From a virus (Duplodnaviria; Caudoviricetes), in IMG/VR virus record IMGVR_UViG_3300031654_000003, positions 1-57,775 of that record: a DNA stretch of 57,775 bases; one strand, written 5' to 3'. The notes beneath the pieces are model-generated. The model worked only from the letters and a program-made list of their open reading frames with translations, ran no database searches and was not told where the DNA came from. The translations under genes and the position numbers were made by a program. The first letter of the stretch is position 1, and each line of letters begins with the position of its first letter. Below, one piece after another: positions 3,675-37,987 of the stretch.

Positions 3675-3993
3675 TTCTACGCATTTGCTCCTTCTTCTGA
3701 CGCCTCTTGTCTATGTAGGCTTGACTGGCCTGTTTGGATAGGTCATCAGGCATACAAAGCTTTTGAACTTCTAAGGTATAATCGAACTTTTTGCCCTTGC
3801 CTTCATCACTTGACCTTATGCCGACAAGTTTGCAATCTGCCTGTACTTTCATCATTTTACCGATGTCTTGGTCATCAAAGCTGGATATACCACCCACGCC
3901 TTTATCGCTATAGTAAATTGTCGGATAGTATTTCTTCTTTGAAGATTTGCCAACTGCCTCAACTGGTTTCTCAGCTAAATCTATGGTTTTCAT
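3667..3993 (-). CDS. Head-associated protein (possible capsid staple/decoration)
   Basis: KYYPTIY...IGKMMKVQADCKLVG...YTLEVQKL beta-rich pattern. Confidence 0.5.
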   Translation of the reverse strand: MKTIDLAEKPVEAVGKSSKKKYYPTIYYSDKGVGGISSFDDQDIGKMMKVQADCKLVGIRSSDEGKGKKFDYTLEVQKLCMPDDLSKQASQAYIDKRRQKKEQMRRNG

Positions 3994-11985: not shown

Positions 11986-12334
11986 AATAAAACAGGCTCG
12001 CCCACGTTAATGAACGAGCCCAAGCTCACAGGGATTTTCATGGTCTAAAAATCGTCTGTTATTCACAAAAGGGATTTTATTGGGCAGATAGCCCAAGCAA
12101 TGGTCAAGGACAAAGCTTTGTATAGCATAACCTATATGTTGTTTAGTTGTACCCGTTGAAGTCTGCGTTTTGATTCTGCCCATTTGCAGCCCTCATGCTC
12201 TTGTCCATTCGTCTTTGACGAATTCACCTTAAGCACCATCCCTGCGAGGTTTTCAACAACGCTCAACACAGACTTTTTTAGACCATTAGTACAATACATA
12301 ACCAGAACTTAGCAGATGAACCTTGATTTGTCAA
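11986..12334 (-). ncRNA. Promoter plus structured leader RNA ending in a terminator
   Basis: TTGACA-N17-TAAGTT; 12-bp inverted repeat 12040-12051/12275-12286; TGGGCAGA/TCTGCCCA; GGCTCG..CGAGCC-TGTTTT. Confidence 0.55.
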
Positions 12335-12372
12335 GAAAATATTTGGGGGAAAAGGTGAAAAATATTGAGGAG

Positions 12373-12591
12373 CTAAAATTCTTGAAAAGGTAATTTTCTA
12401 TATTTTGGTAATGGTATAACATTAATATCTCCATTTGGCATTCTTTGCGTGATCATTTGCCTATCCAAATCTCCAAATCTTCTGTGCATTATATATTTAG
12501 CTATACCTATATCTTGGTCTGAATTTGAATAGCCAGCAATTCTCCATCCTTTTGATTGTAAATCTATAATAACATTTCGGCTAACTATCAT
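12373..12591 (-). CDS. Hypothetical protein
   Basis: AAGGCGG SD-like. Confidence 0.5.
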   Translation of the reverse strand: MIVSRNVIIDLQSKGWRIAGYSNSDQDIGIAKYIMHRRFGDLDRQMITQRMPNGDINVIPLPKYRKLPFQEF

Positions 12592-12840
12592 TTTTCCGCC
12601 TTTCTCCGTCCTTACTCATTATTATTCTTTCAGTTCAGGACGAACAGCTATGCCATTAATTCCAAAACCATCAAATACCGTTCGTCAATTTTACCTGTTT
12701 CGGCAAATTCACTTATTTTTTCTTTTGAAATTCCTGTTCCCATCACCAATATATCTAATTGGTTTCTTGCTATTCTTTGAACTACAGCAATTTGTAACTC
12801 ATTTTTTCTTTGGTCATTTATCATTTTTACACCTCACAAT

Positions 12841-13082
12841 AAAAAGCCCGCCCAGTTATGACAAACGCTGCGAAGCGGTATGTCTACCAGACGGGCTGTA
12901 AATATATCCTTTGCCTGCAATCCAAATAAACTTTTTATTACAAAAGCGACAACGTGGATTATCAGTGTTTGGTATCTGGTGAAATTTGCCTTTTATGCAA
13001 GGTGTTTTTGTAATAGGAATATCGGATTGTTTCGCAGCGTTCATCATGTTCGTATTATCGGCTACCCGTTTTCAGAAGTCAA
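12841..13082 (-). promoter_or_regulatory. Promoter, leaderless 63-aa ORF (12856-13047) and fold-back terminator
   Basis: TTGACT-N17-GATAAT, ATG 6 nt later; 17-nt complement of the start region inside terminator loop. Confidence 0.75.
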
Positions 13083-13115
13083 GAAAAATCTTGACATAAT
13101 ATTAAAAATACCCAG

Positions 13116-13310
13116 TTACCTTAATGCTAAAATTGAAATTTTATTCCACAATCTAATTGCTCCTTTTCTTGATTTTGAGTAACCAACTTTGAATCTGCAT
13201 GATATTTGAGTATGGCATTTAACATACCAACGCCTGAAATGAAGGCTGCCTAAAGATTGTTTAATCGTTAATTTAGTACCACCACATTTAGGACAAGGAT
13301 TTATCTTCAT
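13116..13310 (-). CDS. Lar-like (restriction alleviation) zinc-ribbon protein
   Basis: NPCPKCGG...VKC...C...SRKGAIRLWN. Confidence 0.65.
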   Translation of the reverse strand: MKINPCPKCGGTKLTIKQSLGSLHFRRWYVKCHTQISCRFKVGYSKSRKGAIRLWNKISILALR

Positions 13311-13605
13311 TCTTAATATCCGATATATCAGCCAATACTTCATGTTTAGGATTAAATCTTATATCAAAATATTTTCTTCGGTCATAAGGCATAAAACTCC
13401 AAAGCGCTTGTATCTCAAAATCTTTGTAACCATTATTTACAAGCAAATTGTAGGCTCTGTCGATATCAGAACCTTCATTCATGGCAATTTGTATATATGG
13501 ATTTGGTAAGTGGCCACAAGAACACTCTGTATCGAATCCGTTATCTCTAAGCAGTTTCACTAATTCTTTCAAAGGTTCTTCTATTTGGTCATATAAGTTA
13601 CCCAT
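13288..13605 (-). CDS. Hypothetical protein
   Basis: IEEPLKELVKLLRDNGFDTECSCGH motif. Confidence 0.6.
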   Translation of the reverse strand: MGNLYDQIEEPLKELVKLLRDNGFDTECSCGHLPNPYIQIAMNEGSDIDRAYNLLVNNGYKDFEIQALWSFMPYDRRKYFDIRFNPKHEVLADISDIKNEDKSLS

Positions 13606-13618
13606 ACTTTCGCCTTAA

Positions 13619-13876
13619 TCAAAAAGGAATATCATCCTCTGGCGGCACGTAATTCTCATCATAATCTGGATTAGGCCTATATTCGGTCGGCTTTTCTTCG
13701 GATCGTGGCTCCTGGCTTGCGTGAGCAAAGGGAATAGCCTCTGTATCGTCTATATCAAGATTCTTCAAGCTCCTTCCATGTAGCTCTCCAGACAGATATT
13801 GCTTTAGCCAAGCCTTGCCTTTGGTATTGGGACCCGTAAGTATAATCTCATGTGCTCTTAGAACTGATGGCTTCAT
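13619..13876 (-). CDS. Short paralog of the C-terminus of 15358-15987; ends DDIPF
   Basis: ILTGPNTKGK..L and NPDYD..YVPP.DDIPF shared. Confidence 0.6.
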   Translation of the reverse strand: MKPSVLRAHEIILTGPNTKGKAWLKQYLSGELHGRSLKNLDIDDTEAIPFAHASQEPRSEEKPTEYRPNPDYDENYVPPEDDIPF

Positions 13877-14195
13877 GCTTTAGCCGTTCTATCAATAAAC
13901 CTTCCAAAAGAATCATATACACAATAATATCGTTGGTTTTTTCCAACCATTGTTCTATGTCTTGATTTTTACCTTGCTCCAATTCGTTTAAGAAATCATA
14001 TAAAGCGACAATATGTTTAGTGACAAAGCCCATCAAAGCCTTTTCTGGCGTACAATGTAATAAATTGGCCGCCTGCTTAAAATTGCTTAATCTGTCACCA
14101 TCATGAGCATATTCTTTAGCTTTGCTACCTGCGGTTTTTTCTATTAAATACAACCGATTCTTCAGGATATGTTTTTCAAAATATTCTGCGTCCAT
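13848..14195 (-). CDS. DUF1599/MazG-like helical nucleotide-associated domain protein
   Basis: KAKEYA.DGDRLSNF...KH...EKTNDIIVY.ILL. Confidence 0.65.
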   Translation of the reverse strand: MDAEYFEKHILKNRLYLIEKTAGSKAKEYAHDGDRLSNFKQAANLLHCTPEKALMGFVTKHIVALYDFLNELEQGKNQDIEQWLEKTNDIIVYMILLEGLLIERLKHEAISSKST

Positions 14196-14248
14196 TTTTG
14201 TCCTTTATTTCACGCTGAGTTCATTCGTTCAATCTGCTGCTAAAATAA

Positions 14249-14620
14249 TTACCACCATAAATGCCTAAAATATTTACCAAACAATCGTAGTCCGCTTCCA
14301 ATTTTTATATCTATAGTTTTAGAGTAAATCTCATCTTTTACTATATTCTCAAAAGCAAAAATCATCTTATCTAATATTTCTTCCCATTTGCTTTCCGTAA
14401 GACATCCTGGCATTCCTATATCTATTTCCCTAAATCTTTTAAGGCGGGGCAGAATAAATTCAGCAATAACTAAATGTAAAGACCAAGTTTCACTATCCGA
14501 AAATCCCCATTTCTTTAACTGTTTTAAGTGTTTTTTGTATCTTCTGTCTGCTTTATTAAGATACAAAGGTTTTTTTAGGGACCAATTAGACTTATATTTA
14601 TTATTTTTTTTCTTATCCAT
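14249..14620 (-). CDS. Conserved phage hypothetical protein
   Basis: WSL...IAEFILPRLKRF...ILDKMIFAFE...GLRLFGKYF..LW. Confidence 0.7.
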   Translation of the reverse strand: MDKKKNNKYKSNWSLKKPLYLNKADRRYKKHLKQLKKWGFSDSETWSLHLVIAEFILPRLKRFREIDIGMPGCLTESKWEEILDKMIFAFENIVKDEIYSKTIDIKIGSGLRLFGKYFRHLWW

Positions 14621-14653
14621 ACTTCACGCTGAATTCATCCGGTTAATCTGCTT

Positions 14654-15337
14654 TCATTTTCCTACAGGAAATAATGGCTGCTGGCCTTGCCTTGCCTCTT
14701 TGACGGGAACGCCAGTATCGACAGCCTCTAATCTTTGGCGGGCAATCTCGCAGTATTCAGGGGAAATGTCTATGCCGATAAATCGGCGACCAAGCATTTT
14801 AGCGGCTACACAGGTAGTGCCAGAGCCGCAAAAAGGGTCGAGAATGATATCATTTAATTTTGACCTGTTTTTAATTATATTTAATGGGAAACCTAAATCT
14901 TGCCCCCAATAATGATATTGTTTTTCTGCTTTTTCTTGAGTAAAATCTGTACTATCCCAATACAATAATTCATTATTTGCATTTCCTTTTGTCCAAGTAA
15001 TAACTGGCTTAGAGCTGCCAAATATCTTTTTACTCCAAAAACGAGGCCAACCATTATTGTGTTTTATATTAAATAACCAAAACCAATTAAGATAATTACT
15101 CATACCTACAATGATTTTATTAAGATAATTAGACCCACAATAAGCATATAAAAATCGACCAGTTTTAAGCAATTGCAAGCTTATTTCTGCTAATTTAATA
15201 TAACTAATTATATGTTCTTTAGAATATGGCGGGTCTGTTAAAATAAGGTCAATACATTCATCCGGCCAATCCTTCATAACTTCCAGACAATCCCCGCAGA
15301 TTATTTTATTCACAAATTTTTCTTCAAACTGATTCAT
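14654..15337 (-). CDS. DNA N6-adenine/N4-cytosine methyltransferase (beta class)
   Basis: ILTDPPY then [19 protein letters not shown]. Confidence 0.93.
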
Positions 15338-15357
15338 ACAAAATTATATGCTTGCAG

Positions 15358-15987
15358 TTAAAATGGTATATCATCATTAGGCGGCACGTATTCAGGGTCG
15401 TAATCAGGATTCTCAAATGCCTTGCTTGCCATTTCTTGAACAGAACCGATTCGACCAATAGACAATAAAAATCTTCTGCCCGCAGTATTCGGCCCGTTTA
15501 ATATTCGATTTTCTGCTTCTTTCTTTGCTTCATTGCCCCACAATGGATTTTCTTCAAGACTTTCAGCAGATATGATTGGACGCCAGCGACCGCCTTCTTT
15601 CTGTTCCCATTCTTTAGCTTTTTGTTCAAGATATTCTATTTCTTTACCCGTTAAGGATGTGGGAACAAATACAATCCATTGTCTATCTTCCCAATCTGGA
15701 TGATTTGGTGGGGCTTGAACACAACGCAAATAACAATAAGGAAGTTCTGGAATATTAGAAACCGCCTTATCAAAAACAATTATCTTTTGCTTAATAAATC
15801 TGCCAATGCTTGGTTTTTTACCAATATCTTCTTGGGATTCAAGCCACTCTTTTAATCTTTGTCTTGTTTTATAGAGATTGCATTTTTTGAGTTTTTCAAT
15901 CCAAGACTCCAATTCGGTTTTTGTAGGTTCCCAGTTAGGCCACAAAGGCTTAATTTCTTCTGCAAAGAATTTTTCAACTTCATTCAT
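15358..15987 (-). CDS. Replication-associated protein (helicase-loader position), ends DDIPF
   Basis: Coupled to replication initiator; N-terminal helical domain with KKPSIG. Confidence 0.5.
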   Translation of the reverse strand: MNEVEKFFAEEIKPLWPNWEPTKTELESWIEKLKKCNLYKTRQRLKEWLESQEDIGKKPSIGRFIKQKIIVFDKAVSNIPELPYCYLRCVQAPPNHPDWEDRQWIVFVPTSLTGKEIEYLEQKAKEWEQKEGGRWRPIISAESLEENPLWGNEAKKEAENRILNGPNTAGRRFLLSIGRIGSVQEMASKAFENPDYDPEYVPPNDDIPF

Positions 15988-16730
15988 AGCCTGCCCTCTT
16001 CTTTAAGTTCCTCAATCATTTTTTCAGTTGATTTTGTACGATTATCATATTTGCCTTCTAAGACTTTGACATAGTTCGTATCGTTTGATATTAACCACTC
16101 TAAAGTTGCAGTCCATTTGCGTTCATTTTCTCCGCAACAAAATCGACTTTCGGCTATTTTATCAACGACAGTTTTCCAATTTTCTAAAAACACGGGGTCT
16201 TTGAATCTTATATTTAGTTTTGTTCTCCGCGTGTCGGATAAAACTCGTATTTCTTTGAGTTTCTTTTTGGAGTTCCAGTATTGAACAAAATCATTTCCAA
16301 GATTATTCGGCGAAATTGTGTTATCTTTACTTCTATTCTCTTCTTTTAAATTCTCTTCTTTTAAATTAGGCGGGAACGTTCCAGGATTATTCGGCGAACA
16401 TTCTTGGAATGGTAGCGGAGCGGGTAGCTTAGATGGTTGTGGTTTATCTATCCTTTGATGTTTCAAGAAGTTATATAAATATCCATAATGGCTTCCATTA
16501 ACTTGATAGAGCTGAATTTTGCTCTTTAACTCTTCCAAGAGCATTCCAAGATTAATCTTGGAATCGTATGGGAATATCTGTGCTTTTAACAAGGATTCAT
16601 TGGCTTTGAACCGGCCTTCATCATCTGCAAAATTCCATAATCCTATATACAAAAGTCTTGCATAAGGACTCCAATTTCCTATTTCCTCATCAGACCAAAA
16701 TTCAGGGTCTATCATCCTTTTGCGAGGCAT
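15984..16730 (-). CDS. Phage replication initiator
   Basis: MPRKRMIDPEFWSD, RLLYIGLWNFADDEGR, FLKHQRIDKP, WTATLEWL...KVLEGKYD; likely start 16730. Confidence 0.85.
   Translation of the reverse strand: MPRKRMIDPEFWSDEEIGNWSPYARLLYIGLWNFADDEGRFKANESLLKAQIFPYDSKINLGMLLEELKSKIQLYQVNGSHYGYLYNFLKHQRIDKPQPSKLPAPLPFQECSPNNPGTFPPNLKEENLKEENRSKDNTISPNNLGNDFVQYWNSKKKLKEIRVLSDTRRTKLNIRFKDPVFLENWKTVVDKIAESRFCCGENERKWTATLEWLISNDTNYVKVLEGKYDNRTKSTEKMIEELKEEGRL
16295..16398. repeat. Iteron-like repeats in initiator gene (candidate origin)
   Basis: TTCCA(A/G)GATTATTCGGCGAA at 16295-16314 and 16379-16398; tandem TTCTCTTCTTTTAAA at 16336-16365. Confidence 0.6.
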
Positions 16731-16743
16731 TATCCATCCATGC

Positions 16744-16880
16744 AAAATAAAAGCCGGCAACGTAGATATGAGCGCACAAGTCGCAGAATTGCCGCTGCCG
16801 GCCATTCTTTACCGATTAAGATTGTAAACTTGATTACTCATATCTGCCCCCAAAATACCGACCTCAAAAGCAAGTGTCAA
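16744..16880 (-). promoter_or_regulatory. Promoter and attenuator-like leader of replication operon
   Basis: TTGACA-N17-TATTTT; leader peptide MSNQVYNLNR (16809-16841); GCCGGCAGCG/CGTTGCCGGC + T-tract. Confidence 0.75.
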
Positions 16881-17076
16881 GATTATTTCCTAAAAATTCT
16901 GTCATTTCGAGATTTTTCTCTAAAGTTAATATGGAGAACTTTCGATAATAGAGGCATGAGTAAGATTCAGGCGAGGTTAATTCTGGCTCAACACTTGATG
17001 TGGGGAACACGAAACGAGTTTGAACGAACCAAATATTTGGAGCTTATTGTTTATTACCGAAACATTATTAAGTTAG

Positions 17077-17277
17077 TTGAGAGGATTAAAAATGGAGAAA
17101 TTGGCAAAAATCTGGAATCGAATGGAGAAAAAACTGGCACGGATGGTTGAAATTCTATTTCTGTTGATGGCTATCTGGCTCTGTATAAATACCAACGGCT
17201 GCTCCGGCACTTTCCACGGGATAGGCACGGACATCAAAAACGGCGGGGCGTATGTAGAAAAGCACGTCCAACCATAA
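17077..17277 (+). CDS. Entericidin EcnA/B-like small lipoprotein (start uncertain)
   Basis: Hydrophobic stretch then GCSGTFHGIGTDIKNGG. Confidence 0.55.
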   Translation: MRGLKMEKLAKIWNRMEKKLARMVEILFLLMAIWLCINTNGCSGTFHGIGTDIKNGGAYVEKHVQP

Positions 17278-17355
17278 TAAATTAGGAAGCTATATACTAA
17301 TTTTTAACATTTTAGTATTAAATTAGTATTTGGCATGGATGGTTTATGCCCCAGT

Positions 17356-17452
17356 CCCGCAAGGGATGCCTAACGGCAGGATGGGGCTTTTCTTATTTGG
17401 GAGGAATCCCCGCCCCCGCCATTCCAATAAGAGCAACGGCGGGGGCTTTTTA
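17356..17452 (+). terminator. Two tandem GC-rich hairpins with T-tracts
   Basis: GCCCCA...TGGGGC-TTTT and GCCCCCGCC...GGCGGGGGC-TTTTT. Confidence 0.65.
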
Positions 17453-17793
17453 GGGGGGTGAAGATTAATAGCAAAGCCTGTCAATCTTCTTTAATAGGGT
17501 CAAGTCTATCGAGCCATGCTCTTACTTTTATACATACACAGCTCAAAACAAAGGCTATGATTTCTAAAGTCCAAAACGAAATATACTTAATTAATTTAGT
17601 CATGCTGCCAATCATACGAAATGATTTTCCCGCCGCTATTAATGTAAGTGGGTATTTTTAAGATTTCGCTATTATTTAGTCAAGACTTACCATATATAAT
17701 CGCCTTTGATACAGCTATTTGAAGTATTGGGGGGCAATATGAGCAAGCCACAAAAAACAATCAATTTTGGCGATGAACAGGATATTGAAGAAA

Positions 17794-18060
17794 TCAACCG
17801 GATTTTGAGGTCTTTTTCTTCCGAGAGGCGACACCTTGTCTTAAAGGTGCTTCGAGTGCACCAATCAAACCAAGACATAGCTGCCGGTCAGGATTGTTTG
17901 TCGATTTCAAAATGTATTGATAATTTATTGGTAGATTAGCAAATGTCTCGATTGCAGCCTCCAATATCCTGTATTTCGGCTTGCCGAGCCTTCCATATAA
18001 TTGGTCAAACATATCTGCAAATTCCTCACTAATATCAAAGCTAAAAGAAATTCTTCGCAT
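17794..18060 (-). CDS. Ribbon-helix-helix-like regulator (candidate repressor)
   Basis: RISFSFDISEE beta strand then two helices (KYRILEAAIETF); AAGGAG SD; divergent from early operon. Confidence 0.6.
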   Translation of the reverse strand: MRRISFSFDISEEFADMFDQLYGRLGKPKYRILEAAIETFANLPINYQYILKSTNNPDRQLCLGLIGALEAPLRQGVASRKKKTSKSG

Positions 18061-18177
18061 TTTTTCTCCTTTTTTTATATAAATCTAAATCTTTACAAAT
18101 TAAGAATAATCAAGCATTTACAGCACTTTCAACCCTAAAATATGATTATTATTCAAGACTTTTCTACTGGATTTTCC

Positions 18178-18350
18178 TTGACTTTTACCAACACTATTTG
18201 TAAAATACCCGTAACAATATAGGAGATTGTCCTATGGCAGAAACAGTTAATAAACCACAAAAGACTTTGAGGCTCAGAGAGTACGCTGTTTCTGCCAAGA
18301 AAACATACCTCTGCTTTCTGAGCCTTCTTATTTTTTGGAGTCCTCCATGA
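18178..18350 (+). promoter_or_regulatory. Early promoter, 38-aa leader ORF (18234-18350) and attenuator-like fold
   Basis: TTGACT-N17-TAAAAT; AGGAG SD; interleaved 12-bp and 14-bp inverted repeats, T-tract. Confidence 0.75.
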
Positions 18351-18420
18351 CAGCGAATGTACTGTTTTGCTGCCATGATAGGAATTATACATAGTTTATC
18401 TAAATTAACAAGGGAAATTT

Positions 18421-19368
18421 ATGAAAATCAAAGTCGCTGATTTAGAACCTAATCCATATCGCAAAATAAAAGAATATCCTATTGATAGAATAAAGGTTGA
18501 AGCTCTAAAGACTTCAATCAAAGAAAAGGGATTTTGGGCCTCTTTACCAGCGAGAAAAAATAATGGCAAATATGAATTAGCTTGTGGACATCATAGATGG
18601 TTTGCTTTGAAAGAACTCGGAATTGAAGAAGTTGAAATAACGATAGAAGATTATACCGATGGTGAGATGATACGCATTATGGCAGAGGAAAATCTTGACT
18701 GGTCAACAAGTCCGGCAGTAACCACACAAACGATTCAAACAGCTAAAGAATATATTGATAATGAATTACAAAAAAGTGAATGGTCAACATCTGATAAAAA
18801 TATCAGATGTTTGTTCATAAATCAAACAGCTTTTACTGAAAGTAAAACGAAAGGTGTAGGTAGAGATATTATCCTTAAATTTCTCGGCGGCAATTGGAAA
18901 TCTTGGATGGTTCAAGAGGCTTTGGTCTTTATCAAAGATTATGATACATATCTTGATAAAGAAGCGGTTGAAACTATTCCTACCATGTTTCAGGCTCGTA
19001 CATTTCGCCAGAACGTAGAAACCTACGAGATACCCAAAAAGCAACAACGCCAACTTGCGAAAAAAATAAGAGAAAAAGATATTGGCAAAAGAGATATTCC
19101 GAAATTTGTCAGGGACAATGCTACAAAACCACAGGACAAAAAGAAAAAAGATATCCAATCAGAACGAATTAAAAAACTGATTGAAAACATAGACTCTCAA
19201 TCACGGTCTTTATTCAACAATATAATCAATCTACGAAGGTATATGAAACAGATGGAAATTGAAGAAATAAGAGGCGTGAAAGTTTGGTTGGCAAAAAGTT
19301 CATTAAATAGATTGTTTAAGGAATTGGAAAGATTAAGAGAAGGGAGTCAACATGAGGCCGTTAGCTGA
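18421..19368 (+). CDS. ParB/Srx N-terminal domain protein
   Basis: LEPNPYR...LKTSIKEKG...YELACGHHRWFA...EN. Confidence 0.85.
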   Translation: MKIKVADLEPNPYRKIKEYPIDRIKVEALKTSIKEKGFWASLPARKNNGKYELACGHHRWFALKELGIEEVEITIEDYTDGEMIRIMAEENLDWSTSPAVTTQTIQTAKEYIDNELQKSEWSTSDKNIRCLFINQTAFTESKTKGVGRDIILKFLGGNWKSWMVQEALVFIKDYDTYLDKEAVETIPTMFQARTFRQNVETYEIPKKQQRQLAKKIREKDIGKRDIPKFVRDNATKPQDKKKKDIQSERIKKLIENIDSQSRSLFNNIINLRRYMKQMEIEEIRGVKVWLAKSSLNRLFKELERLREGSQHEAVS

Positions 19369-19861
19369 AATAACTGATAATTGTTTAGAATATATGAAAC
19401 CACATGAATTATGGTCTTGGGAGGATTGGTGGGAGAAAGTCATTAAAAATGGCGAAATACCTTCTCGTAAAACATACGCTTATGAAAAGTTTATAGATGA
19501 GCGTAATAAGATAAAAATAAATATAAACAACGAATTAAAAAGAAGGAAAGTGCCAGAAAGATTAATGTGTCCAGGTTCAGGTCAAGGAATTTATTTAGTT
19601 TGCGAAGATGATGTCGCTGAAATTACCGCAGACAAAAGAGTTAGGAAAATTGTTAGCACTTTTGAGATAAGCCACAAGGAAATGTCGCTATTAGCTGTAT
19701 GCAATAAAATTAGCGAAGAAGATAAAAAAATGTTACTTCGGTTAAGTGACATGGTTGAATTACAACAAAACACAATGATAGGAACAATGTCCAAAATGCG
19801 GTCTTTACCACCAGCAACAAAAAAACGCCTATTAAAAAAATTAGGCATAGATAGTAAATAG
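19352..19861 (+). CDS. Hypothetical partner of ParB-like gene
   Basis: GGGAG SD, overlaps ParB-like stop. Confidence 0.65.
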   Translation: MRPLAEITDNCLEYMKPHELWSWEDWWEKVIKNGEIPSRKTYAYEKFIDERNKIKININNELKRRKVPERLMCPGSGQGIYLVCEDDVAEITADKRVRKIVSTFEISHKEMSLLAVCNKISEEDKKMLLRLSDMVELQQNTMIGTMSKMRSLPPATKKRLLKKLGIDSK

Positions 19862-22116: not shown

Positions 22117-23088
22117 CTAACAATCAAGTACCTTAGTAGCATCAGCAAGGTCAGCAGTTAGGATATGGGCATAAATCTGCTCTGTAGTACGTATGGATTT
22201 ATGTCCTAACAATCTTGACACTACTATCACAGGGACACCCTTACGAAGAAGCTGTGTTGCAAAGTAATGACGCAGTGAATGAGGCCCGAACTTTGGAACT
22301 CCAGCTTTCTGGGCGAGTCGAGAAAATGATAGCCACAAAGCGTTGCGAGTACCGAGTTTTAGCTTCGGCAGAACTTGGCAGGCAGTTTCATTTAAGGGAA
22401 TAGTCCTTTGTTTTCGGCCTTTGCCGACAATAGTGATGGTGTTCATTTCAAGGTTAATATCCTTAGCTGATAACTTTGAAAACTCAGTTGCCCGAAGTCC
22501 GGTATTTGCTAAAAAGATTATCCGGTCCCGTGCTAAAGGCGTAGCAACATCCAATATCTTCTGATATTCCTCTGGTTCAATAAAACGTGAGGCAGGGGGG
22601 TCTTCTTTCAGCATCTTGACTTTCATAGCCGGATTAGGAATATCGTACCGATCTGAATTGTACCGACAGAATGCCTTAATGGGTGTCAAGTGTGCATTGA
22701 GAGTACGATTGATATCTCCCTTGTCTCTAAGCCGATGAAGATACTCCTGAATGTAATGAGGTTCTATCTGCTGAATACGATAGATGGTTTTGGGCAGAGA
22801 TTCGATAAACTTCGATAAGACATATTGGTAATGCTGCTGGGTTCTTGATGTATGACGCTTGCAGTAAGTCAGGTAGTCAGATAATGCTTGATTAATGGAT
22901 TCGCTGGGTGCAACCTCACTGTTGCGCCACAATCTTTCCTGTTCTTCGATGTCTGCGAAGAACTTAATGGCCTGGGCTTTCTCATAAAAAACCTTAGAGC
23001 CGGAAAAGATGATGTGCAATTTTCGGTTGGTGGCACGCCAACGAACCCGCCACTTTTTCAATTCTCTGATATATCCATAGCTTGCCAT
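22117..23088 (-). CDS. int: Tyrosine integrase
   Basis: NTGLR, VGKG, HSLRH, LLGH, TT..Y catalytic motifs; likely start MASYGY at 23088. Confidence 0.95.
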   Translation of the reverse strand: MASYGYIRELKKWRVRWRATNRKLHIIFSGSKVFYEKAQAIKFFADIEEQERLWRNSEVAPSESINQALSDYLTYCKRHTSRTQQHYQYVLSKFIESLPKTIYRIQQIEPHYIQEYLHRLRDKGDINRTLNAHLTPIKAFCRYNSDRYDIPNPAMKVKMLKEDPPASRFIEPEEYQKILDVATPLARDRIIFLANTGLRATEFSKLSAKDINLEMNTITIVGKGRKQRTIPLNETACQVLPKLKLGTRNALWLSFSRLAQKAGVPKFGPHSLRHYFATQLLRKGVPVIVVSRLLGHKSIRTTEQIYAHILTADLADATKVLDC

Positions 23089-23089
23089 C

Positions 23090-23343
23090 TTGACAGCACC
23101 ACGACAAAAATCTTGACAGAGTTTTGACAAAAGCAAAATCGGCAAATATTTTCTGCGCAGTCTGGAGTTCTAAATTCTTTATCCTCAATTGTTTACGCAT
23201 AAGCGGGCGAGGAGAATCGGACTCCTGACGACCAGCTTGGGAAATATATTAACATTCCCAAAATACCTTTTTATTAAGCAATATCGGCGATTAAAACCTT
23301 CAAAAACCACAAAATCAAGTCATTATTTGACATGACTTTGACA
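23090..23343 (+). promoter_or_regulatory. Arm-type repeats and IHF site around attP
   Basis: TTGACA at 23090, 23113, 23124, 23327, 23338 (ACGACA at 23101), 11-12 bp period; AATCAAGTCATTA (WATCAAN4TTR) at 23313-23325. Confidence 0.65.
23202..23243 (-). mobile_element. attP core: 3' half of tRNA-Gly(CCC)
   Basis: TTCCCAAGCTGGTCGTC-AGGAG-TCCGATT-CTCCT-CGCCCGCT; 5' half of tRNA absent; adjacent to int. Confidence 0.82.
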
Positions 23344-23356
23344 AGCTGCAAGAAAA

Positions 23357-23950
23357 TAGCCAGTGGCGGATGGAGTCAAAATTGGTGACTACTGGTCTGG
23401 CCAGCCCCTGATGCAGAATCACTCGCAGAGTAGGAAAGCTCTGTCCACTGGCTACAAATCTGCTGGCGGCGGCGTAAGTATGCGGCACGAGGGAACTATC
23501 GGTTGCCTAACAGAAAAACGCAATTCGCACCGATAGCCGAATTGCTAAACGTTATACAGGTAAAATCCTGTTCGCCAGCAGATGTTATTGTACCGTAAGG
23601 TATCCCATAGGGACTGCAAACCTAACAATACACATAGCCCCTGACGGAATATAAGCCCCAGCCAGCGGTGGGCTAAAACACTGGCAGAGTTTTTAACACC
23701 AGAACGGGGCGGGCGACGGAGACATTCGGATAAGTCCCGCCCTATGATTGTAAAGCCTATGTCAATTTTTGAACGCCGGAGAATTGATGGCATGTGACTA
23801 AGCTACGTAAGTGATTGAGGCGTGACGGTCGCCAGAGGCGGCAACTTTGAAAACTTAATACGCCAAGGACGGGACGGAAAGGAAGGATCCTGTCCTACGG
23901 AGAGCAACTATTAAACCTTTGACTCTGTTATGGTACAGACTATACGTCCC
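23357..23950 (+). ncRNA. Cluster of structured, partly tRNA-like non-coding elements
   Basis: About 600 nt without convincing ORF; perfect 10- and 11-bp closing stems with internal hairpins. Confidence 0.55.
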
Positions 23951-36997: not shown

Positions 36998-37987
36998 TTA
37001 TTCACCTTCTTGCAATCTGCGAAGGATTTCGTTTATGTTGTTCGGGTTAAGGGTTAGAGCTTGCTTTATTTCTTGTTTGTCAATATCCTCAAGGCTTTCC
37101 CAGTACAAACCCAGCTGGCTTGCTTTGGCCTTCTGCTCCGGTGTAAATTTAGGCCATATATCCTGTATCTCTTTGGGTACTTCATAAGCCTTGCTCGGTG
37201 GTTCAAACATTTTCTGGGCTACACTTTCAATGCCGGTCGGCCTTTCTTTTCCTTTTATTCTCTCTCCCAGTCCCGGCCTATCTCTTAGCGATGTTCCTGT
37301 TGGCGCAGTAGTTGTAGGTACTGGTGGTTTTTGCCCGAACATCTCAGGATGTTGCTGATAAAACATTGCAGTAAACGGGTCCATAGATACAGGAATATTC
37401 GTTTCTACTGGCTCTCCCGTATATGGATAATCCATTCGCAACATATTTGTGTCACCCTTAAAGAATTTAGGCGTAGGCATTCTCGGCGTTATATCTAAGT
37501 CGCCATAGCCCATTCGCTGCATAATTGAACGAAAAGCCGGAGATTGCAGAACTTTCGGGTCGATTTTGCTAAAGTCAATCAATTCTCCAAGTTTCTGTTT
37601 TGCCCTTTGTGGTTCTTTTTCCGTCAATTGTTGTAATAGAGCCTGCTCAAGTTCAGAGCCACCACCTCTGGCCGGTGCAAACGGATTTAGCCTGTCAACA
37701 ATACCCCCTAAGCCGGTCGGTCTTTTTGCAGTCATTTCCGAAATGGCACGTAATGCCTCTTGAAGATTAGCTTGCATATCACCTTCTCTGGCAAGTATCG
37801 GGGATACCTGTTGAAACTGCTGCTGAGTTTGCCGCTGCTGCTTGCCTTGACCATAGATTTTTCCTAACATATTTCCAATGGCTTGAGCGAGAAGGAGTTT
37901 GTTTTGTCCTGCATTCTCGCTTAAATCCTGTATTCCGCCACCACCACTAATCGGTAATCTCGGCGTGTAAAAAGGTACGTTTATCAT
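36998..37987 (-). CDS. Internal virion/ejection protein
   Basis: G/Q/P-rich; middle of three-gene ejection block. Confidence 0.65.
   Translation of the reverse strand: MINVPFYTPRLPISGGGGIQDLSENAGQNKLLLAQAIGNMLGKIYGQGKQQRQTQQQFQQVSPILAREGDMQANLQEALRAISEMTAKRPTGLGGIVDRLNPFAPARGGGSELEQALLQQLTEKEPQRAKQKLGELIDFSKIDPKVLQSPAFRSIMQRMGYGDLDITPRMPTPKFFKGDTNMLRMDYPYTGEPVETNIPVSMDPFTAMFYQQHPEMFGQKPPVPTTTAPTGTSLRDRPGLGERIKGKERPTGIESVAQKMFEPPSKAYEVPKEIQDIWPKFTPEQKAKASQLGLYWESLEDIDKQEIKQALTLNPNNINEILRRLQEGE

Follow-up and report, generated by a model that had tools for sequence, protein, structure and literature searches.

The early region of a tailed temperate phage, IMG/VR virus record IMGVR_UViG_3300031654_000003 (57,775 nucleotides (nt), analyzed as a whole and referred to below as the window), carries three leaders in which the loop of a terminator-like hairpin is complementary to the start site of a short leader frame. 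Each leader follows the order A-B-A′-B′, where A lies at the translation start, B and B′ are the arms of a stem followed by a T-tract, and A′ is the complement of A within the loop. As judged by sequence comparison, this layout is a reused RNA design and not a coincidence, because it recurs before replication initiator (Rep) and ParB-like genes in many divergent phages and shows covariation there. The element thus appears to be real as a conserved RNA architecture, from which we reason that it may function as an attenuator. The first-pass annotation of this DNA had spoken of a reused RNA switch: the reuse is borne out by recurrence and covariation; termination, switching, and its direction are deductions.

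Three leaders in the early region

The first-pass annotation had reported three A-B-A′-B′ leaders between 12.8 and 18.4 kb, and all their parts (A and A′, the B/B′ stems, T-tracts, and promoter-like hexamers) could be read in the sequence. Leader (i), on the plus strand, begins with the hexamers TTGACT-17 nt-TAAAAT (18178–18206, 10 of 12 matches). An open reading frame (ORF) of 38 codons (18234–18350), with AGGAG 9 nt upstream, crosses B, A′, B′, and the T-tract. A (18235–18246) overlaps codons 1–5 of this frame, the ATG of which lies at 18234. B, the 5′ arm of the terminator-like stem, lies at 18269–18283. A′ (18286–18297) starts 2 nt past B and is a perfect 12-nt complement of A, and B′ (18312–18326) leads directly into the T-tract (18327–18336).

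Leader (ii), on the minus strand, has the hexamers TTGACA-17 nt-TATTTT (16852–16880, 10 of 12 matches). A (16826–16846, core 16845–16837) lies about at the predicted transcript start and contains the ATG (16841–16839) of a 10-codon frame (16841–16809) that stops 79 nt ahead of the rep ATG. B is found at 16793–16803. A′ (16763–16783, core 16772–16764) sits in a 30-nt loop and ends 1 nt before B′ (16762–16752), which is followed by a T-tract (16751–16743) 21 nt before the ATG of Rep. A second ATG at 16805, next to B, starts a frame that continues across the terminator and shares the reading frame of Rep. An identical 10-nt word with a terminal ATG stands directly before stem B both here (16803–16815, minus strand) and in the leader of a related locus, L010 (around 3950–3962); in L010, as in leader (ii), its ATG opens a second frame that crosses the terminator.

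Leader (iii), also on the minus strand, has the hexamers TTGACT-17 nt-GATAAT (13054–13082, 10 of 12 matches) with an ATG 7 nt past the second hexamer. A 63-codon frame (12856–13047) runs from the predicted 5′ end of the transcript to a stop at the A′/B′ junction. Its first 17 nt are A (13047–13031), which pairs over its full length, including two G-U pairs, with A′ (12874–12858) in the loop of a hairpin (12838–12897) composed of B (12897–12886), B′ (12856–12846), and a T-tract. The next gene starts with an ATG at 12824. The 63-codon frame has no homologue at near lengths in the protein collection, no family match, and no close relatives in viral contigs by single-protein queries. Leader (iii) is therefore without comparative support. 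Counting G-U pairs, 10–12 nt of its terminator loop are also complementary to the opening codons of two genes, the one at 12824 and a 329-amino acid (aa) gene that starts at 37987 (minus strand); both matches are within background.

Transcription is predicted to start 4 nt before the ATG in leader (ii), on the ATG in leader (iii), and about 21 nt before the ATG in leader (i), which is preceded by a Shine–Dalgarno (SD) sequence. Hexamer pairs resembling σ70 promoters are not enriched in this region (40 found vs 41.6 expected in shuffles). The A sequences of the three leaders are unrelated to one another. We folded the leaders with ViennaRNA, which returns nested structures only and no pseudoknots. 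The minimum free energy (MFE) structure contains A:A′ in leaders (ii) and (iii) and the terminator in leader (i). When B′ of leader (i) is blocked, as in the nascent RNA just before B′ appears, 15 of 15 A:A′ pairs form.

The number of inverted repeats in the window is at chance level. With gaps of up to 120 nt we found one perfect 12-mer repeat (0.7 expected from shuffles), and perfect 9-mer repeats occur 36 times (29.9 expected). Because these totals equal the shuffled level, the pairings count only through their placement, which is not at chance level. To quantify placement, we compared each terminator loop with its own upstream sequence by a local helix score against 300 dinucleotide shuffles; this score replaced duplex-fold energy, which was too permissive as a statistic. 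None of the 300 shuffles reach the observed score for leader (i) (100 nt upstream) or leader (iii) (220 nt upstream). Leader (ii) is marginal alone and is carried by its relatives. Four other hairpins with large loops in the window (1811−, 37669+, 29349+, 23452−) are unremarkable, with 32–264 of 300 shuffles reaching their scores. When each loop was matched against the entire 57.8 kb, its own A was the best match for leader (iii) and nearly so for leader (i); the rest was background. Kinship to c4-type RNAs, which the first-pass annotation had raised for comparison, is not borne out by Rfam: no model of this or any other type matched the window at gathering score, the interval 12700–18500 at E ≤ 1, or 13 related loci.

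Recurrence in related phages

To find relatives of leader (ii) we collected Rep-homologue loci from viral contigs (42), species genomes (62), and metagenomes (80). Among 177 usable Rep upstreams, 31 contain a stem of at least 7 pairs with a T-tract ending no more than 60 nt before the ATG, and in 30 of these the loop measures 23–53 nt. Where Rep lacks such a leader, it directly follows another gene. In four phage-collection records with a Rep N-domain (the cultured phages Mx8 and Marinomonas P12026 and two uncultured ones) Rep likewise stands directly after other genes, or the upstream sequence does not show the layout. We removed truncated copies, one hairpin with a 4-nt loop, and duplicates or near-duplicates of the window, L117, L154, or L155, which left 23 distinct Rep leaders. 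In 11 of them the loop pairs with its own 130-nt upstream better than with all 22 foreign upstreams, where about one such case is expected (binomial p = 9 × 10⁻¹⁰).

A wider scan covered 800 nt upstream of Rep and ParB homologues in 181 distinct regions and returned 41 large-loop hairpins with an SD sequence and start codon downstream. Thirteen of these 41 candidates beat all 40 foreign upstreams (1 × 10⁻¹¹), and some of the leaders found in this way precede a small gene ahead of Rep (the L110 group, L151, L146, L014). At least two rank-0 cases, L048 and L083, are probably false and look like GC-rich coding sequence, which also swamped a general scan of all loci for large-loop hairpins with upstream complements. 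ParB-like homologues could be reached only by an alignment query, since single-protein queries found no close relatives in viral contigs. The 29 ParB-like loci contributed five further distinct leaders with the layout, of which L207 and L193 beat all foreign upstreams.

The layout common to these leaders consists of a promoter, A, B, A′ in the loop, B′, a T-tract, and an SD-led ATG about 20 nt further on. Different lineages have A, B, A′, and B′ segments of unrelated sequence, the layout alone is kept, and leaders cannot be aligned across the family. Two pairs of leaders are similar enough to be compared directly, and MAFFT alignments built without regard to structure reveal covariation of A with A′, which the first-pass annotation had named as a check. 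L007 and L010 share two A:A′ helices with 16 pairs, all paired in both sequences, of which 6 are changed on both sides. L118 and L119 differ on both sides of 5 of 23 A:A′ pairs and of one B:B′ pair. Sliding the 3′ partner by 1–3 columns as a control gave 0–2 double changes. The 11 compensatory A:A′ changes in the two pairs count weakly, because each comparison involves two sequences only.

Start codons, frames, and geometry were examined in 23 leaders, of which 18 are selected Rep leaders and five are ParB leaders. The link to the leader start codon proposed by the first-pass annotation turned out to be general: 22 of 23 leaders have an ATG that is part of A or no more than 12 nt away, and the ATG density near A is 0.041 per nt compared to 0.019 elsewhere in the same upstreams (2.2-fold, p = 4 × 10⁻⁴). 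Read by eye, the ATG is effectively 5′-terminal in window leaders (ii) and (iii), L010, L007, L134, L154, and L207, and follows an SD-like run that is part of A in L118, L119, L133, L129, L132, L122, and others. Frames opened near A reach B′ in 19 of 43 cases as opposed to 10 of 86 control frames shifted in two ways (p = 5.5 × 10⁻⁵). Terminator-crossing frames are present in 16 of 23 leaders. In the window, leaders (i) and (iii) have such a frame, and (ii) has one only by way of the ATG at 16805. In L118, L129, L184, and L155 the leader frame ends within 1–4 nt of the rep ATG or runs into it; several other leaders show this out of frame. The leader peptides contain no conserved motif beyond Phe and Leu from T-runs; a short stretch is common to L118, L119, and L133 only.

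A coincides with the predicted transcript start or is at most about 15 nt away from it, and a regular-expression search found a promoter in 14 of 18 Rep leaders. The stems comprise 7–18 base pairs (bp) with the T-tract 6–45 nt before the ATG, the median distance from the hairpin end to the next gene start is about 21 nt, and the loops of 23–53 nt are unusually large for an intrinsic terminator. In every leader A′ is in the loop and never in B or B′. Two geometries occur. In window leaders (ii) and (iii) and most Rep leaders A′ abuts B′; in window leader (i), L129, L100, L132, and L115 A′ abuts B and a linker of 12–35 nt leads to B′. In its order of segments, the second geometry matches a classical H-type pseudoknot. 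Blocking B′ lets 20 of 22 leaders form half or more of their A:A′ pairs, and in 11 of 22 the best folds with and without a forced terminator differ by 2 kcal/mol or less. A run of 5–8 T directly follows A in about half of the Rep leaders (by eye: L118, L119, L133, L122, L109, L135, L010), in a background that is AT-rich. By analogy to pyrBI-type leaders this run could be a polymerase pause site.

Contigs from four other metagenome runs contain three blocks of the window within differing flanking DNA. Block 12840–13083 corresponds exactly to leader (iii) from the first promoter hexamer to the T-tract, and block 15332–16852 to Rep with leader (ii) up to the second hexamer; neither is changed among the differences listed. 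A third block extends from about 17610 to 18182 or 18331, reaches leader (i), and carries about 40 differences up to about 18050. None of the differences listed for the contigs of these four DNA runs fall in A or A′ of any leader, and these close relatives gave no covariation; one contig differs from leader (i) at 11 letters, which are not among the differences listed. Similarly, L105–L107 have the same Rep and leader as the window and differ upstream of the promoter. Because the blocks recur with differing flanks and L105–L107 diverge upstream of the promoter, the leaders seem to behave as exchangeable cassettes. The block edges fall on promoter hexamers and the T-tract end, and recombination joints therefore coincide with the borders of regulatory cassettes.

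How the leaders may work

We tentatively favor the reading that each leader is a cis-acting, ribosome-gated attenuator, to which we would give somewhat less than an even chance. Transcription would start at the σ70-type promoter, and the first 5–25 nt (A) would present the translation start of the leader frame either as a 5′-terminal AUG or as an SD sequence with AUG. A ribosome could load on A before A′ is made some 50–110 nt later and follow the polymerase. In most members this ribosome would translate over B, A′, and B′, keep the terminator stem open, and allow the polymerase to read into rep, parB, or other downstream genes. Without a timely ribosome, A′ in the nascent loop would pair with A and lock the start site; B′ would then close the stem, and the transcript would end at the T-tract as a compact short RNA. 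We infer from this arrangement termination at the hairpins, a pseudoknot in which A:A′ and B:B′ exist side by side, and read-through as the outcome of translation and not the reverse. A ribosome translating near an intrinsic terminator is reported to repress this terminator, and terminators that lie less than 100 bp into a coding region to be efficient, as the first ribosome lags behind (PMC4824070).

Several observations weigh against ribosome-gated read-through. Leader (ii) is not significant alone: 4 of 22 foreign upstreams reach its score, as do 14 of 300 shuffles. We chose the 18 core Rep leaders after their pairings had been seen, with L127, L117, L043, L161, and L048 left out, and ATGs inside −10-like hexamers may inflate the ATG count. 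In a test for strand-specific RNA pairing, G-U and A-C mismatches flanked by Watson–Crick pairs occur 15 and 11 times, respectively, which is not a significant difference (p = 0.56). In window leader (ii), L007, L010, L193, and L135 the frame started in A stops before B, so that the ribosome would not cover the terminator there, and for leader (ii) and L010 the second ATG at B would have to be invoked. Finally, A′ fills nearly the whole loop in L133, L154, L155, and L184. With so long an A:A′ duplex the stem would be expected to stay open, in favor of the opposite direction of control.

This opposite direction is the main rival, and we consider it unlikely, if less so than any other alternative. 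The same RNA would then operate with reversed sign: A:A′ would be an antiterminator, a stiff duplex that parts B and B′ in the manner of a molecular beacon, an untranslated leader would read through by default, and a ribosome or other factor on A would free the loop, so that the stem closes and transcription ends. In line with this proposal, transcription reaches A′ ahead of B′, and 21 of 22 leaders form A:A′ when folded with B′ blocked; half of the leaders have two nested folds of nearly equal energy, a trait of known switches. The leaders in which a short frame stops ahead of B (window (ii), L007, L010, L193) also fit better, and an A′ that covers almost the entire loop in the four leaders named above (L133, L154, L155, L184) is hard to square with a closed stem. 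However, A′ shares no nucleotides with the stem, unlike every classical antiterminator, and would have to exclude the terminator by geometry alone. In the H-type order of window (i), L129, L100, L132, and L115 the two helices can coexist. Moreover, frames cross the terminator in 16 of 23 leaders, where translation would antiterminate too and leave no off state.

Rather doubtful as well is the idea that the pairing acts after transcription only, as in icaR or hok. A:A′ would silence the small frame, create an RNase III site, or bury the 5′ end, and the hairpin would be a plain terminator or stability element that makes no read-through decision. For icaR, a 3′ segment is reported to pair with the SD region of its own mRNA, block initiation, and create an RNase III substrate (PMC3868564). 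A:A′ duplexes of 18–28 bp in L118, L019, and L134 would suit such a role, and leader (iii) looks like a complete promoter-frame-terminator unit that moves between phages as one block. Of the three leaders, only (iii) resembles a monocistronic unit. Against this idea, the first real gene of the operon has its SD-ATG a median of about 21 nt past the hairpin and T-tract, which thus do not stand at the end of a unit, and since the small frames encode no conserved peptide and have no homologues, a device that tunes only their translation would be without purpose.

It is very unlikely, in our estimate, that the terminated leader is a trans-acting RNA for immunity or copy control in the manner of P4 CI RNA, P1 c4, or plasmid countertranscripts, the loop or 5′ end of which would pair with nascent leaders of incoming or replicating genomes and force their termination. 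The first-pass annotation had recognized no CI or S24 repressor; a Pfam search of 40 chosen ORFs found the integrase and no S24 or CI domain, which would leave room for an RNA in this role. A promoter followed by about 100–150 nt and a terminator is also the anatomy of a small-RNA gene. Terminator loops of small RNAs can have regulatory function (PMC11979758), and in plasmids the control of rep genes involves leader peptides together with antisense RNA and a pseudoknot (PMC8053102). The partner of the loop within the same molecule would nevertheless compete with any trans target, loop matches in the window beyond the own A are at background level, and the three A sequences are unrelated, and no match to c4 or another Rfam family was obtained. 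Least probable of all is that the complements reflect chance or play no part in RNA and are inverted repeats that act in the DNA, such as operator half-sites or origin elements, which would agree with the shuffled-level repeat counts, the indifferent G-U and A-C mismatches, and the marginal score of element (ii), but not with the family-wide excess over foreign upstreams, the 11 compensatory changes, bulged helices of 18–28 bp that start at the predicted transcript start and not in the promoter (cases read by eye), or three A sequences in one phage that would call for three DNA-binding specificities.

Returning to the ribosome-gated attenuator, we may speculate, with little confidence, that the leaders are portable, promoter-keyed insulator cassettes that let the phage read the translation capacity of its host in place of a CI-type repressor. 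Only transcripts from the own promoter would carry a start codon at or near the 5′ end, load a ribosome in time, and pass the terminator; read-through from upstream would be stopped. With three of these in front of the rep, par, and downstream operons, the phage would choose between replicating and staying quiet.

If the attenuator reading is correct, these leaders represent a widespread RNA control device of uncultured temperate phages that RNA family libraries would have missed, with the shape kept and the sequence not. They would also introduce a new attenuation wiring, in which start site and terminator loop are paired in an interleaved 1:3/2:4 pattern, placed ahead of the genes that commit the phage to replication and partition. 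The device would be a concrete candidate for early-gene restraint in phages without a recognizable repressor. As the leader is short (100–150 nt), self-contained, and exchanged as a block, it lends itself to an easy reporter test and could become a compact part for transcription-translation coupling.

Genomic setting and known systems

The window encodes terminase, structural proteins, and a tyrosine integrase (22117–23145). The phage occurs in salt-marsh sediments, and a search for sequencing runs that contain it listed no RNA run. The interval from 12.8 to 18.4 kb is a divergent early region with the ParB side reading rightward and the Rep side leftward; the interval 12000–19500 has no DNA match in the phage collection. 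The first gene after leader (i) codes for a ParB_N-domain protein (18421–19368, plus strand; PF02195, E = 1.5 × 10⁻¹⁰); downstream of it lie small genes and one for a YopX protein. Among named homologues, the one nearest to this ParB-like protein (P0002, 75% identity) is encoded on a contig binned as a Candidatus Peribacteraceae metagenome-assembled genome (MAG). Leader (ii) precedes the replication initiator (15984–16730, minus strand), which was identified by PHROG profiles and tblastn. We set its start at 16730, where PHROG rep profiles (PHROG 1408 and others) align from residue 26 of the long ORF, and tblastn matches begin at residue 1 of this start in 37 of 42 viral-contig relatives. Rep homologues occur in MAGs from many phyla. 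Downstream of Rep follow a 209-aa protein, a DNA methylase, small proteins, and a Lar-like protein. The Lar-like restriction-alleviation protein (13116–13343, minus strand) and the N6/N4 DNA methylase (14654–15337, minus strand) of this operon may provide anti-restriction functions that are expressed together with replication.

Three other features of the window deserve mention. Divergent from leader (i), an 88-aa frame (17794–18060, minus strand) without Pfam or PHROGs match starts with a short strand-like run that leads into a helix-like stretch. Judged by eye, it may resemble ribbon-helix-helix repressors; it overlaps a 66-codon frame on the opposite strand. At 17340–17450 (plus strand) two tandem GC-rich hairpins, each followed by a T-run, end the rightward small genes 16956–17277. 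Their loops measure about 17–21 nt; the phage seems to favor large-loop terminators in general. Upstream of the integrase gene, a 280-nt segment (23340–23620, minus strand) contains two long-range helices formed by two perfect 10-nt inverted repeats (MFE −92 kcal/mol, z = −2.8) and has no tRNA, tmRNA, or Rfam match. This segment could be the attP region or a structured int leader.

In the literature that we covered, which is incomplete, we found no account of a terminator loop that pairs with its own leader start site in phages. By analogy, the phage element would work most like ribosome-coupled transcription attenuation, with pyrBI as the nearer and trp as the looser parallel; in pyrBI the leader frame overlaps the terminator. 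Like these operons, the phage leaders combine a promoter, a small leader frame, and a terminator-like hairpin just before the first structural gene. As in pyrBI, the leader frame crosses the hairpin (16 of 23 leaders), and T-runs between A and B, seen by eye in about half of the leaders, are a further likeness to pyrBI-type leaders. The phage element nonetheless lacks the trait that defines a classical attenuator, an alternative helix that shares bases with the terminator stem: in place of such an antiterminator, a helix joins the start site to the terminator loop. Unlike pyrBI and trp, the phage leaders contain no regulatory codons or conserved peptide, and their setting is phage replication and partition instead of biosynthesis.

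Phages are known to use RNA for immunity, as in P4 CI RNA with seqA and seqC and in c4 of P1 and P7, where complementary segments are tied to premature termination. The leaders described here share with these systems the complementary segments ahead of replication genes and the lack of an obvious protein repressor. Unlike P4 and P1 immunity RNAs, their complement targets a start codon and not dedicated target boxes, and no c4 model of Rfam matches them. A processed stable RNA is not known for the window leaders.

Fold-back of a messenger on its own start site also has precedents. In hok mRNA a downstream segment pairs with the translation initiation region of the same molecule. The same is reported for icaR (PMC3868564). 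Unlike in these two messengers, the partner in the phage leaders lies in the loop of a putative attenuator in a 5′ leader before an operon, not in a 3′ untranslated region.

Two further systems invite comparison. In mycobacterial leaderless short ORFs, a stalled ribosome unmasks the ribosome-binding site (RBS) of the next gene and thereby senses cysteine (10.1101/834739). There too, a short frame with the 5′-terminal AUG of a polycistronic transcript governs the genes behind it through the position of a ribosome on an RNA structure. However, the mycobacterial ORFs are described as acting on translation, not on a terminator (10.1101/834739), whereas the phage target is a hairpin with a T-tract, the start site itself is an arm of the structure, and no amino acid signal is visible. 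The rep genes of plasmids R1 (tap/repA), ColIb-P9 (repY/repZ), and pMU720 (repBA) are controlled through a leader peptide, antisense RNA, and a pseudoknot (PMC8053102). The stop codon of the leader frame abuts or overlaps the rep start in L118, L129, L184, and L155, which may parallel the coupling in these plasmids; in both cases the leader start site would be the regulated target, and a hairpin loop engages in long-range pairing. Unlike in plasmid rep control, the antisense partner in the phage leaders is part of the same transcript and does not come from the opposite strand, and the loop is that of a terminator-like hairpin followed by a T-tract. The distal partner of this loop is the 5′ leader start site and not a segment beside the rep RBS as in the ColIb-P9 and R1 pseudoknot, and the gene behind it encodes a phage-type initiator (PHROG 1408 and others) and not an IncI or IncF Rep. 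Taken together, the wiring of the phage leaders looks like a ribosome-sensing brake on replication genes of a kind that appears to be undescribed.

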